Part shown: piece by piece, positions 1,661 through 2,788 of the stretch
Layout of the letters: every line of letters begins with the position of its first letter
How positions within the stretch are numbered: the stretch's first letter is position 1
IMG/VR virus record: IMGVR_UViG_2534682159_000005
Location: 1 to 6,238 of that record
Reading direction: 5' to 3' (one strand)
Origin: a virus
Lineage: Duplodnaviria > Heunggongvirae > Uroviricota > Caudoviricetes
DNA length: 6,238 nt
The notes under the pieces: generated by a model
Told to the model about the DNA's origin: nothing
The model's input: the letters and a program-made list of their open reading frames with translations, nothing else
Database searches by the model: none
Program-made: the position numbers and the translations under genes

Positions 1661-1710
1661 CGGGTTCTCCGGTGACACAGCAGGTGCCAGTTGTTCAGGC
1701 CGGCGTGCGA

Positions 1711-1740
1711 ATTGTAAACCAGAATGCCAGGAAAAAACAA
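1711..1740 (-). promoter_or_regulatory. Candidate sigma70 promoter for the 90-aa/ydfU-like/rusA transcription unit
   Basis: Minus strand TTGTTT (1740-1735), 18-nt spacer, TACAAT (1716-1711), about 50 nt upstream of ATG 1660. The -35 is weak and overlaps the U-tract of the hokD terminator. Confidence 0.2.
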
Positions 1741-1758
1741 AACCCGCAGAAGCGGGTT
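1731..1758 (-). terminator. Rho-independent terminator downstream of hokD
   Basis: Minus strand AACCCGC-TTCT-GCGGGTT followed by TTGTTTTTT (7-bp GC-rich stem, 4-nt loop, U-tract). On the plus strand the same hairpin has no following T-run, so it is oriented for minus-strand transcripts. Confidence 0.7.
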
Positions 1759-1761
1759 AAG

Positions 1762-1786
1762 TGCGGGTGCGTTGAGGATGCCTGAC
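1762..1786 (-). promoter_or_regulatory. 3' UTR element complementary to the hok mRNA 5' leader (fbi-like fold-back element)
   Basis: Plus-strand 1761-1777 GTGCGGGTGCGTTGAGG is the inverted repeat of plus-strand 2140-2154 CCTCAAGCACCCGCA (15 of 16 with one bulge, extendable to about 25 nt with mismatches). Both lie inside the predicted hokD transcript. Confidence 0.45.
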
Positions 1787-1797
1787 ACATCAGAGGT

Positions 1798-1819
1798 GGC
1801 GAGGGATTTCTCCCTCGCC
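1798..1819 (-). other. Perfect 9-bp stem hairpin with tetraloop immediately 3' of the hokD stop codon
   Basis: Minus strand GGCGAGGGA-GAAA-TCCCTCGCC begins 8 nt after the hokD stop. No U-tract follows, so it is more likely an mRNA structural or stability element than a terminator. Confidence 0.4.
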
Positions 1820-1826
1820 GGGTCTC

Positions 1827-1982
1827 TTACTTCTCAGATTCGTAAGCTGTGAAGACAGCGACCTCCGTCTGGCCGGTTCGGATTCGTACCTCGCAGAGGT
1901 CTTTCCTCGTTACCAGTACCGTTACAACGACGGTAATACAGATGACGATCAGGGCGATTAGCATCGCCTTTTGCTGCTTCAT
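1827..1982 (-). CDS. hokD: Hok/Gef family type I toxin (51 aa), HokD/RelF-like
   Basis: MKQQKAMLIALIVICITVVVTVLVTRKDLCEVRIRTGQTEVAVFTAYESEK: single transmembrane helix followed by the conserved RKDLCEVRIR..EVAVF..YE Hok signature, near-identical in pattern to HokD of E. coli K-12 as I recall it. ATG at 1982-1980 with AGGAG 8 nt upstream. The track ORF (1827..2039) extends 19 codons upstream in frame, probably not used. Confidence 0.85.
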   Translation of the reverse strand: MKQQKAMLIALIVICITVVVTVLVTRKDLCEVRIRTGQTEVAVFTAYESEK

Positions 1983-1995
1983 AGCCTGCTGCTCC

Positions 1996-2024
1996 TTGCC
2001 TTTCGGCGCATAAGAGGCTAATCT
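1996..2024 (+). promoter_or_regulatory. Candidate antisense promoter at the hok start region (possible Sok-like antisense RNA)
   Basis: Plus strand TTGCCT (1996-2001), 17-nt spacer, TAATCT (2019-2024). It would drive a transcript antisense to the hok leader (about 2031 onward). No clean terminator was found, so this is weakly supported. Confidence 0.2.
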
Positions 2025-2130
2025 AAGTGTGCAAGTCATAGATATGGCCTCAGATTAATGTTAAGCGTCCTGCAAGACGCATAATGTTAACTGGGGCTTT
2101 TCTCTGTCTGCCTTACGTCGGCATGCCCGA

Positions 2131-2154
2131 GGCAGACAGCCTCAAGCACCCGCA
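2131..2154 (-). promoter_or_regulatory. 5' leader element of hokD mRNA complementary to the 3' UTR (tac-like fold-back element)
   Basis: Minus-strand leader TGCGGGTGCTTGAGG (2154-2140) pairs with the 3' UTR segment at 1762-1777. It lies just downstream of the candidate -10 TAGAAT and is followed by a 9-bp stem hairpin (2139-2104). Confidence 0.45.
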
Positions 2155-2157
2155 GCA

Positions 2158-2185
2158 ATTCTACTTAACTCTTCTTTCCCCGCAA
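2158..2185 (-). promoter_or_regulatory. Candidate sigma70 promoter for the hokD mRNA
   Basis: Minus strand TTGCGG (2185-2180), 16-nt spacer, TAGAAT (2163-2158). The predicted start near 2151 coincides with the 5' complementary element and gives a transcript of about 420 nt to the terminator at 1731, the size typical of hok mRNAs. Confidence 0.4.
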
Positions 2186-2192
2186 ACCGTTT

Positions 2193-2276
2193 TTATCCCC
2201 AGCGGCAAATCGAATACACCACCAGCGCCACCGCCATTGCAATTCCTACCGTTATGAACGCTTCAGGCCAGGTCAT
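2193..2276 (-). CDS. 27-aa hydrophobic single-helix peptide, translationally coupled to the upstream 171-aa gene (absent from the ORF track because of its size)
   Basis: MTWPEAFITVGIAMAVALVVYSICRWG. The ATG at 2276-2274 overlaps the TGA stop of the 171-aa gene (ATGA). It has a hydrophobic core with a basic/aromatic C-terminus and a TAA stop at 2195-2193. Confidence 0.45.
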   Translation of the reverse strand: MTWPEAFITVGIAMAVALVVYSICRWG

Positions 2277-2788
2277 CGTAAAATATTCTCCTCGTTTATC
2301 AGTCCGTTTCGCTTCAGGTAGTCCATCGCCTTATCCGGTAATTTGCAGTCCGGCTTCGCTTTTTTCAGTTGGCTGACCAGCCGTTTAACCCACATTGCTA
2401 ATTCGCTAACCTGATTGCCGGATGCTGGTGGATTGTCGGCTTTACCCAGAATGGCAGCACAGCAGGCCTCTCTGAGCACCCAGTCAACAGCATCCTTCCA
2501 TGCTCCTGTTTCGACTGGCGGATTCTCACGCTTTACCTGTTCATAAAAGCGCACAGCTTTAACCAGTCCTTCTGATGTCACCGGGACTGGCGGGCCGATG
2601 AATAAGGCCTGAATTTCATAGTTCGGCCTGTCGTTACAATCCTCTTTTGTCGGTACATATTTCCAGTCACCAGCCCACTGCTTCCCCTGAAAGTCTGTAA
2701 CGTCTTTTTTCACGTAGCGATATCGCCATGCAACTGGTTTTGCCTGCCCTGCCGTTTCATGCCCTTCCTGATAATTAATCTCGCTCAT
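2273..2788 (-). CDS. Hypothetical prophage protein (171 aa)
   Basis: ATG at 2788-2786 overlaps the stop of the upstream 58-aa gene (ATGA). Trp/Tyr-rich N-terminal half and a CC pair; no family recognised. Confidence 0.7.
   Translation of the reverse strand: MSEINYQEGHETAGQAKPVAWRYRYVKKDVTDFQGKQWAGDWKYVPTKEDCNDRPNYEIQALFIGPPVPVTSEGLVKAVRFYEQVKRENPPVETGAWKDAVDWVLREACCAAILGKADNPPASGNQVSELAMWVKRLVSQLKKAKPDCKLPDKAMDYLKRNGLINEENILR

Follow-up and report, generated by a model that had tools for sequence, protein, structure and literature searches.

In an Stx2a lambdoid prophage carried by E. coli strain 00-3076, the minus strand of the nin region encodes a Hok-type toxin; the gene has the replication genes on one side and DUF968-rusA-Q on the other, and two inverted repeats bracket it. 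The locus raises the question of what these repeats are. The original prediction had read them as the two ends of a fold-back toxin mRNA, in a self-contained hok module free of relBE, and had offered the termini of a tiny mobile cassette as an alternative. [quoted passage not shown] This assignment is based on the leader match to RF01794, the toxin match to PF01848, the predicted fold-back of the mRNA, and the conservation and covariation of the pairing. The self-contained reading holds in that the module is complete and every predicted element matches the hok family, all of them present at the sequence level in the order and spacing of that family.

Elements of the locus

The elements are as follows, in the direction of the predicted toxin mRNA (window positions):

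2180-2185, minus strand: candidate hok promoter -35, TTGCGG, read from the sequence (3/6 consensus; weak evidence)
2158-2163, minus strand: hok promoter -10, TAGAAT, 6 nt 5' of the GGG start
1977-2151, minus strand: hok mRNA 5' leader, matched by RF01794
2140-2151, minus strand: tac element GGGUGCUUGAGG at the 5' end of the hok mRNA (RF01794 position 1 aligns at 2151; kept in 29 loci)
2124-2133, minus strand: 3' arm of the 5' (metastable-type) hairpin, partner of tac nt 4-13 (covariation in the alignment)
2093-2099, minus strand: ucb or anti-SD box AAGCCCC, partner of tac (Rfam consensus) and of the mok SD region
About 2031-2101, plus strand: Sok-like antisense RNA gene, 71 nt, corresponding to the sokW misc_RNA of 933W
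2048-2051, minus strand: mok Shine-Dalgarno GAGG, 8 nt 5' of the mok AUG (GAGGC invariant in the alignment)
1827-2039, minus strand: mok-like ORF of 70 codons in the same frame as hok (ORF list)
1996-2024, plus strand: candidate Sok promoter TTGCCT-17 nt-TAATCT, read from the sequence (7/12 consensus)
1992-1997, minus strand: hok Shine-Dalgarno AAGGAG, read from the sequence (CAAGG invariant in 29 relatives)
1827-1982, minus strand: hok toxin ORF, 51 aa (Pfam, PHROG, RefSeq)
1798-1819, minus strand: 3' UTR hairpin GGCGAGGGAGAAAUCCCUCGCC, formed in the full-length and 3'-truncated folds
1765-1777, minus strand: fbi element CCUCAACGCACCC, pairing with tac, conserved and covarying with it
1731-1758, minus strand: intrinsic terminator, stem-loop 1758-1741 followed by a T-run (terminator scan)

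The toxin ORF matches the Pfam family HOK_GEF, PF01848, with E = 1.6e-23 and 82 bits (cut-off 22), as well as PHROG 251, 'MokW-like host killing' (E = 2.6e-32), and is labelled Hok/Gef family protein in RefSeq. The in-frame arrangement of mok and hok is common to 933W mokW, the hokC type and the hokD type. Upstream, the covariance-model search suggested with the original prediction returned a full-length match: RF01794, the Rfam model of the hok leader, which is named 'sok' and has a gathering score of 59, aligns to the hok-sense strand over model positions 1-157 of 157 with 113.3 bits (E = 5e-26). The same model matches hokW of 933W and intact loci of Escherichia, Photorhabdus, Pantoea and Erwinia, and gave no match in K-12 hokD or in the other relE-linked or decayed loci tested. 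Weak Rfam matches to isrK (29 bits), ceN48 and CsrC were sub-threshold and were dismissed as chance resemblance between hairpins.

The proposed promoter, TTGCGG-16-TAGAAT (2185-2180 and 2163-2158), is present, although with 8/12 it falls below the 9/12 rule of the sigma-70 scanner; neither the hok nor the Sok promoter (8/12 and 7/12) passed the sigma-70 scan of the window. Since the scanner missed both, conservation of the position of the -10 across loci was used instead. In 28 of 29 related loci, whose upstream sequences are unrelated (roughly 14 different upstream contexts by our own grouping), exactly 6 nt separate the end of the best TAnnnT hexamer from the GGG, and the spacing is equal in R1-type plasmid hok (TATGAT-6 nt-GGCGC). 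The -10 is thus backed by the relatives. The -35 hexamer is identical in 933W and is not kept in other genomic contexts. We infer a putative transcription start at about 2151.

The Sok promoter candidate is collinear with TTGCGC-17-TATCCT of the R1 type and lies upstream of the position that matches the annotated sokW start. The Sok-like unit itself aligns to sokW of 933W at a constant offset of 746 without indels, and its RNA is predicted to fold at -28.7 kcal/mol (z = -5.3) into a single-stranded 5' tail, of which 9 nt are unpaired, a long hairpin and a U-rich tail. A predicted Sok gene with its own candidate promoter and terminator lies over the start of mok.

At the opposite end of the module, the GGCGGGG...CCCCGCC hairpin of the 3' UTR is kept in all relatives aligned. 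The intrinsic terminator originally proposed was detected by the scan, with a stem of 7 bp, 5 of them GC, and the tail TTTTGTTTTTT; the loci with this 3' flank in common (L005, L006 and L008) have kept it. The terminator is also the only strong intrinsic one within this 6.2-kb stretch.

Pairing of the two mRNA ends

The repeats are as quoted in the original prediction: plus-strand 1761-1777 reads GTGCGGGTGCGTTGAGG and 2140-2154 reads CCTCAAGCACCCGCA. The reverse complement of the latter, TGCGGGTGC-TTGAGG, matches 1761-1777 at 15 positions with a one-base bulge, which is G1771 on the plus strand and would be a bulged C in the RNA. The extension, put at about 25 nt in the original prediction, holds for about 24 nt and contains two mismatches. 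The full repeat was missed by a gapless inverted-repeat finder because of the bulge, and only the match on one side of it was returned (1772-1784 with 2133-2145, 13 nt at 85%); folding and duplex energies were used instead. The minimum free energy (MFE) fold of the 421-nt minus-strand RNA 2151..1731 joins tac and fbi at -173.5 kcal/mol (z = -6.6), in line with the proposal that a transcript of roughly 420 nt folds its 5' end onto a 3' element.

A chance match between two G+C-rich stretches might be argued from the short length of the repeat (12-13 bp with a bulge) and from the high G+C content of the region. Nevertheless, the duplex between the first 20 nt of the mRNA and its 96-nt 3' UTR has an energy of -30.6 kcal/mol that was reached by 0 of 2000 shuffles of the 3' UTR, no site in the window is a better target for the 5' 20-nt probe than fbi, and along the mRNA such a probe scores best when it starts at nt 1. 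Pairing was moreover found in 29 of 29 relatives examined, and because it is conserved the chance reading is refuted, its residual probability being negligible.

The complementarity was further predicted to be conserved and to covary, and both were found among the 29 relatives. In an unguided MAFFT alignment of these sequences, drawn from six genera, pairing of the tac/fbi helix reaches 91%, with UA 20, CG 7 and UG 1 at pair 4/403 and GC 16, AU 4 and GU 2 at pair 12/394. The alignment misregisters the distal half of fbi where the bulge is absent and so understates the pairing of pairs 7-12, which was recounted from per-sequence duplexes: every locus forms 10-13 bp, and in total 331 pairs are Watson-Crick, 12 are G-U and one position is a C/A mismatch. 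The helix of the 5' hairpin (alignment columns 4-13 with 20-29) is likewise 97% paired (n=29 sequences), with UA 20, CG 8 and UG 1 at pair 4/29. Position 4 of tac, which is the bulged position in the Rfam tac/ucb stem, hence covaries with both its fbi and its 5' hairpin partner, and such coupling is the pattern expected of one sequence taking part in alternative RNA structures. The covariation is limited to few positions, in sequences that are phylogenetically related. The Rfam consensus pairs model positions 1-8 with the AAGCCCC box, which is invariant across the 29 relatives, and the window satisfies these pairs.

The same comparisons bear on the alternative that the two elements mark the ends of a small mobile DNA cassette with hok inside, as its terminal inverted repeats. 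Such a cassette would fit the occurrence of the module in many unrelated genomic contexts, and homology to the window often ends near the elements, at the 3' side exactly at 1765 in four loci from other genomic contexts and at the 5' side at 2153-2174. However, the -10 at its fixed distance outside the 5' arm in all but one of the loci means that the conserved unit exceeds the repeat, the strand asymmetry of the non-Watson-Crick pairs, G-U far outnumbering C/A, fits RNA and not DNA repeats, and tac position 4 covaries not with fbi alone but simultaneously with a third, internal partner. The bulge between the half-helices varies (C, U or absent) with pairing retained. Furthermore, the unit of roughly 420 nt contains no transposase or recombinase gene, its arms lack matching flanking direct repeats (1751-1760 AGCGGGTTAA vs 2155-2164 GCAATTCTAC), and the function of tac and fbi has been experimentally established for R1 (PMC9841398). 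The cassette is consequently highly improbable, and this part of the original prediction is abandoned. The long-range repeat is, as modelled here, the RNA fold-back known to silence the toxin message.

Predicted control and activity

A mechanism can be drawn by homology with hok/sok of plasmid R1 and hokW/sokW of the phage, following the tac/fbi/ucb model summarised in PMC9841398 and PMC3851714. A weak constitutive promoter with the -10 TAGAAT would give rise to an mRNA of roughly 420 nt starting at about 2151. During synthesis tac would be sequestered by the 5' hairpin; once the transcript is complete, tac (2151-2140) would instead find its partner in fbi (1777-1765), which immediately precedes the terminator, and the resulting closed RNA would be neither translated nor bound by Sok. 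Slow 3' trimming would then remove fbi, and the 3' UTR hairpin is likely the protective 3' end of the processed mRNA, a role taken from R1 (PMC9841398). The 5' end would subsequently refold onto the AAGCCCC box (2099-2093) and expose the mok Shine-Dalgarno and the Sok target. As long as the Sok RNA (roughly 70 nt, plus strand 2031-2101) is present, it would pair with the mok start region and the duplex would be destroyed; when Sok drops, mok would be translated, and hok along with it, allowing the 51-aa membrane toxin to act. In the MFE fold of the 3'-truncated mRNA 2151..1795 the 5' hairpin was kept and the tac/ucb stem was not formed; the putative refolding step comes from homology and the Rfam consensus structure, without support from energy prediction.

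By analogy with these systems we infer that this copy would be transcribed, processed at its 3' end, refolded, controlled by Sok and toxic, although structural completeness does not prove activity. It could be complete in sequence and functionally silent in the manner of other chromosomal hok loci, an evolutionary passenger that is not activated and lends the prophage neither a killing nor a maintenance phenotype; intact loci of this kind have been tested without post-segregational killing (Pedersen and Gerdes 1999, as cited in bioRxiv 10.1101/2025.08.07.668861). The hok and Sok promoters are both weak by consensus, and one related locus (L007) shows decay of the leader, with no Rfam match. 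Conversely, all regulatory elements are intact here, as is the toxin ORF, whose Pfam match is strong, and the pairs are kept across genera through compensatory changes, which argues for ongoing selection on the RNA. Additionally, for hokW/sokW, which is 88% identical, toxicity, neutralisation by its Sok and an effect on phage release have been shown (PMC8621323). A silent module is considered unlikely.

The module points the same way as the early rightward (PR to Q) operon of the Stx2a prophage, and no terminator was found between the upstream nin genes and the module. In a tentative reading that is judged improbable, prophage induction could therefore drive read-through into hok, which would collide with the convergent sok promoter and so couple the toxin to induction; for Sp5, sokW has been reported to fall in a RecA-dependent manner. 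As a further part of this improbable reading, the hok terminator could serve as one more nin-type terminator ahead of Q and stx2, and Shiga-toxin expression would then be more dependent on antitermination.

Relation to known hok loci

Both the module and the truncation of hokD by relBE are already known. The original prediction recognised a textbook hok mRNA fold-back correctly from sequence alone, which carries little weight as a discovery. Its background statement that chromosomal hokD is usually described as truncated fits K-12, and self-contained modules are not exceptional: those of lambdoid prophages have been annotated (933W) and tested (PMC8621323) and are very common, the leader-containing module occurring in about 2,500 of 5,426 complete E. 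coli genomes. In the RefSeq record of the present prophage only the toxin ORF is annotated; the Sok RNA, mok, the leader and a 27-aa upstream ORF are not. Genome annotations of STEC prophages thus show less than the complete toxin-antitoxin module present between the replication genes and Q-stx2.

The closest of the known systems is hokW/mokW/sokW of the Stx2 phages 933W and Sakai Sp5, a working pair of toxin and RNA antitoxin that depends on RNase III and Hfq (PMC8621323) and is annotated at the homologous place in the 933W GenBank record, AF125520. The window is 88% identical to it over 522 nt without indels, from 2276 to 1755. The promoter region, tac, the leader, an in-frame mok of 70 codons and fbi are alike, 46 of the 51 residues of the toxin are identical, the sokW annotation maps to 2031-2101, and the 27-aa upstream ORF (2193..2276) is also present there and likewise unannotated. 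The two differ in setting, the 933W module being located at the far genome end beside tail-fibre genes and the present one in the nin region, and in the sequence after fbi, where the present terminator hairpin has no counterpart in 933W. Many positions also differ in the leader near the mok start, where the 5' tail of Sok pairs, and cross-neutralisation with the Sok of 933W is therefore doubtful.

K-12 hokD (relF) of the Qin prophage is the positional counterpart, its toxin gene being followed by a small hypothetical gene, DUF968 (ydfU) and the Q antiterminator; in K-12, rem sits between hokD and the next gene. Its toxin is identical at 46/51 residues. It is 94.7% identical to the window, but only over 1996-1733, a stretch comprising the hok SD and ORF along with the 3' hairpin, fbi and the terminator; homology ends 14 nt 5' of the hok AUG. 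Promoter, tac, ucb, the Sok gene and mok are all missing, there is no Rfam leader match, fbi is orphaned, and relB-relE lie directly upstream. Cotranscription of hokD with relBE (Gotfredsen and Gerdes 1998, as cited in PMC5120126) and its truncation by relBE integration (Ramisetty and Santhosh 2016, as cited in PMC6379469) have been described. In the window there is no relB-relE directly 5' of hok, which would define a K-12-type relBE-hokD (relBEF) operon; the gene is preceded by the full leader, then the 27-aa ORF and then a 171-aa phage ORF. A RelB/RelE-ParE pair elsewhere in the same prophage was considered as a relocated K-12 relBE and rejected, its toxin having no BLASTP similarity to K-12 RelE. 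K-12 hokD accordingly represents the derived, truncated state.

With hok/sok (parB) of R1 and IncF plasmids, the order and spacing of the elements match from the -10 through the terminator, and the locus is collinear with the R1-type IncFII locus. The shared order comprises the -10, 6 nt, a tac starting with G, the 5' hairpin, the AGCCCC box, the Sok-target hairpin and the mok SD and AUG, continuing with the antisense Sok promoter, the hok SD, hok, the G+C-rich 3' hairpin, fbi and the terminator. R1 and the present locus belong to one Rfam family, and tac reads GGCGCUUGAGG in the R1 type and GGGUGCUUGAGG here. The toxin is about 44% identical to R1 Hok, a figure that refers to HokW vs R1 Hok (PMC8621323). 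The R1-type mok is in a different frame from hok, whereas here the two are in frame, making Mok an N-terminally extended Hok, and the Sok-target hairpin is 19 nt longer here and in 933W than in the R1 type. R1 carries its module on a plasmid; here the module resides in a prophage.

Setting and parts of the hok locus

The window matches the chromosome of E. coli strain 00-3076 (NZ_CP027584.1) at 100% identity and lies there inside a Stx2a lambdoid prophage. The minus strand carries all genes, in the order replication genes, several small nin-region ORFs, a 171-aa ORF, the hok locus, a small hypothetical gene, DUF968, rusA, the Q antiterminator, a methyltransferase, tRNAs and stx2AB. RefSeq annotates the hok locus only as a 'Hok/Gef family protein' (window 1827-1982).

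Parts of the hok module in the window (coordinates, strand, part; basis in brackets)
2185-2180, minus: candidate -35, TTGCGG (sequence)
2163-2158, minus: -10, TAGAAT, then 6 nt, then GGG (sequence and relatives)
2151-2140, minus: tac, the predicted mRNA 5' end, GGGUGCUUGAGG (Rfam match and fold)
2133-2124, minus: 5' hairpin partner of tac (pairing in relatives)
2099-2093, minus: ucb, the anti-SD box, AAGCCCC (Rfam match and alignment)
Within 2101-2031, the interval complementary to Sok, minus: long hairpin, Sok target (Rfam match and Sok fold)
2051-2048, minus: mok SD, GAGG (alignment)
2039, minus: mok AUG, 70 codons in frame with hok (ORF listing and frame comparison)
1997-1992, minus: hok SD, AAGGAG (sequence)
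1982-1827, minus: hok ORF, 51 aa (Pfam HOK_GEF, E = 1.6e-23)
1819-1798, minus: G+C-rich 3' hairpin (folds)
1777-1765, minus: fbi, the 3' element pairing with tac, CCUCAACGCACCC (fold and duplex energies)
1758-1731, minus: terminator hairpin and T-run (terminator scan)
1996-2024, plus: candidate Sok promoter, TTGCCT-17-TAATCT (sequence and R1-type comparison)
2031-2101, plus: Sok-like RNA, 71 nt (933W sokW annotation and fold)

The Rfam covariance search bore out the predicted hok-type module, the whole RF01794 model matching 2151..1977 of the minus strand with 113 bits (threshold 59). This family is named 'sok antitoxin', yet it matches the hok-sense strand over 175 nt (1977-2151), beginning at the mRNA start and ending at the hok AUG, and works here as a hok leader model. 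The Sok RNA proper is ~70 nt long and lies on the opposite strand; automatic RF01794 annotation would put 'sok' on the wrong strand with the wrong length. The predicted fold of the 71-nt plus-strand unit (z = -5.3) leaves the 5' tail free and comprises a long hairpin and a U-rich tail; the unit corresponds to the 933W sokW misc_RNA with a constant offset and no indels.

Further features were observed around the module. The hok terminator (1731-1758, minus) is the only hairpin with a true T-run in the 6.2-kb window; its place in the early rightward operon is ahead of DUF968-rusA-Q-stx2, and it could act as a nin-type terminator. The terminator scan of the window returned none between the upstream nin ORFs and the hok promoter. 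A sub-threshold Rfam isrK match over both 3' UTR hairpins (1737-1818, minus; E = 0.002) reaches 29 bits against a gathering score of 50, and is probably a chance hairpin resemblance. Codon 47 of hok (Tyr; 1841-1844, minus) is part of a TACG, the motif for A-to-I editing by TadA, and TACGAA is invariant in 29/29 aligned relatives; such editing has been reported to change Tyr to Cys in hokC, hokD and hokE (PMC5630033).

Upstream, the ATG of an unannotated hydrophobic 27-aa ORF (MTWPEAFITVGIAMAVALVVYSICRWG; 2193-2276, minus) overlaps the stop of the 171-aa ORF (ATGA), and its end lies 8 nt ahead of the hok -35. Conservative changes aside, 933W (L001 2939-3022) and an E. coli locus (L006 743-826) retain this ORF, which in the latter lies ~195 bp farther from hok. 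It had no match in Pfam and only a weak one to phrog_4612, and may represent a genuine small membrane protein. Elsewhere in the prophage, outside the window, the annotation places a RelB-family antitoxin and a RelE/ParE-family toxin next to the immunity region (L002 12159-12601); BLASTP gave no similarity between this toxin and K-12 RelE.

Predicted pairing of the mRNA ends and its conservation

The inverted repeats on which the original prediction was based are present at 1761-1777 and 2140-2154, the reverse complement of the latter (TGCGGGTGC-TTGAGG) matching the former at 15 positions with one bulged base. A repeat finder that allows no gaps recovered just the part past the bulge (1772-1784 with 2133-2145, 85%), and from this match the repeat, expected to extend to about 25 nt, reaches ~24 nt with two mismatches. 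Upon folding of the minus-strand RNA 2151..1731, the minimum-free-energy structure (-173.5 kcal/mol, z = -6.6) paired the 5' end with the 3' element. In the fold of the 3'-truncated RNA the tac/ucb stem did not form by itself. The duplex of the first 20 nt with the 3' UTR has an energy of -30.6 kcal/mol, reached by 0/2000 3' UTR shuffles; the 3' element is the best target of this probe across the whole window, and among probes along the hok mRNA the one starting at nt 1 is best. In combination, these results show that the repeat match is real, and chance complementarity is excluded by the shuffles together with the conservation of the pairing in relatives.

A scan of one genome per species yielded 36 loci encoding relatives of the window toxin, from Escherichia, Shigella, Kluyvera, Pseudocitrobacter, Photorhabdus, Pantoea and Erwinia. 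In an alignment of 29 distinct full-length mRNAs, covering the start GGG through 5 nt beyond fbi and built without structural guidance (MAFFT), the tac/fbi helix was 91% paired, as against 31-55% in slid controls. Pairing percentage, double-changed cells and covariation score were each reached by 0/500 shuffles; double-change pairs and further pair types were no more numerous than in the shuffles (336/500 and 334/500). Pair 4/403 is U-A in 20, C-G in 7 and U-G in 1 sequences, and pair 12/394 is G-C in 16, A-U in 4 and G-U in 2. Since MAFFT misplaces the distal fbi half where the bulge is absent, the duplexes were recomputed sequence by sequence, giving 10-13 bp in 29/29 (331 Watson-Crick pairs, 12 G-U, one C/A).

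The 5' hairpin is 97% paired in the 29 relatives, and tac position 4 changes together with its partner there as well (U-A 20, C-G 8, U-G 1). In the Rfam consensus the same position is the bulged, unpaired base of the tac/ucb stem. One nucleotide covarying with two partners and unconstrained by a third structure is what the hok folding pathway predicts. Such a pattern was reportedly described by Gultyaev, Franch and Gerdes in 1997 as 'coupled covariations'. The -10 of the proposed promoter is conserved in position, the best -10-like hexamer ending exactly 6 nt 5' of GGG in 28/29 loci, which span roughly 14 different upstream contexts by our own grouping.

According to the alternative originally offered, the two elements would be terminal repeats of a mobile cassette carrying hokD. 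This reading is disfavoured, since the conserved -10 sits beyond the 5' arm, the non-Watson-Crick positions favour G-U over C/A on the hok strand, the covariation is three-way, and recombinase gene and flanking duplication are both absent. The observation of a hok-type module with 5'/3' complementarity is confirmed, and its interpretation as such supported.

Among the relatives, mok is in phase with hok, as an N-terminally extended Hok, in the window (1827-2039), 933W, and the hokD and hokC types; in the close relatives L004, L009 and L017-L019 it is in the +1 frame, as in the R1-type sequence. Rfam sRNA-Xcc1 (RF02221) scored above threshold near hok in 933W (L001 5249-5337, minus) and Erwinia tracheiphila (L037 1476-1565, plus); the Rfam search returned no RF02221 match in the window.

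Truncated and decayed counterparts

For K-12 hokD and the similar loci L003 and L008, homology to the window is confined to 1996-1733 (94.7% identity); upstream they carry relE-relB. Downstream of hok, K-12 is syntenic with the window (small hypothetical gene, DUF968, Q). By these features the window locus is the positional counterpart of Qin hokD in untruncated form; K-12 hokD retains an orphan fbi. The Rfam leader match, 102-118 bits in intact loci, is absent from the K-12-type loci, a relE-linked Kluyvera locus (L020) and a decayed copy (L007). The latter (E. coli ECMA0423, ~1030-1200) shares the prophage context of the window and has an intact hok ORF, fbi and terminator; its tac is partly deleted and its leader carries several small deletions.

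The untruncated-counterpart reading agrees with the literature, as represented by later citations: relBEF is described as a single transcription unit (Gotfredsen and Gerdes 1998, cited in PMC5120126), the hok loci of K-12 as having lost activity through IS elements, point mutation or rearrangement (Pedersen and Gerdes 1999, cited in PMC7232551), and relBE integration as having cut an ancestral hokD frame of ~70 codons to 51 (Ramisetty and Santhosh 2016, cited in PMC6379469).

Proposed mechanism and known hok systems

The most likely mechanism is that of R1 (PMC9841398, PMC3851714). Here, tac would be sequestered cotranscriptionally, and tac/fbi would then hold the full-length mRNA closed until slow 3' trimming let tac refold onto ucb, exposing the mok SD and the Sok target. 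Sok would pair and bring about RNase III decay or, with Sok gone, coupled mok and hok translation would damage the membrane. Transcription, processing and toxicity of the window copy are what we infer, beside sequence-level and comparative parts that stand as observations. The only serious reservation is that the module may be structurally intact but silent; in earlier work, intact chromosomal hok loci reportedly gave no post-segregational killing.

The finding itself is already known, with nothing of substance new. The hok family fold-back is textbook knowledge, and mokW, hokW and sokW are already annotated in 933W. The locus has matches in 4,737/5,426 complete E. coli genomes (median 2 matching places per genome, up to 12), and in 2,495 genomes a copy spans >=80% of window 1680-2280. 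As the K-12 type reaches a coverage of only 44%, copies above this cut-off must contain the leader; in PGAP annotation many of them bear the name hokD. Prophages have been surveyed for Hok enrichment (bioRxiv 10.1101/2025.08.07.668861).

The R1-type IncFII hok locus has the same -10 spacing and the same order of all elements as the window. The hokW/sokW module of Sp5, 88% identical to that of the window, is toxic; its neutralisation by its Sok depends on RNase III and Hfq, and after mitomycin C the module accelerates lysis (PMC8621323). In 933W, hokW departs from the window sequence immediately past fbi (L001 2477-2510 versus window 1731-1764) and has no terminator hairpin there. The Sok hairpin is nearly identical to that of SokW, whereas the predicted single-stranded 5' tail (GCAAGUCAUAGAUAUGGCCUCAG; 2031-2053, plus) shows many differences from the SokW tail (L001 2777-2799), which suggests that co-resident hok/sok modules may not cross-neutralise.
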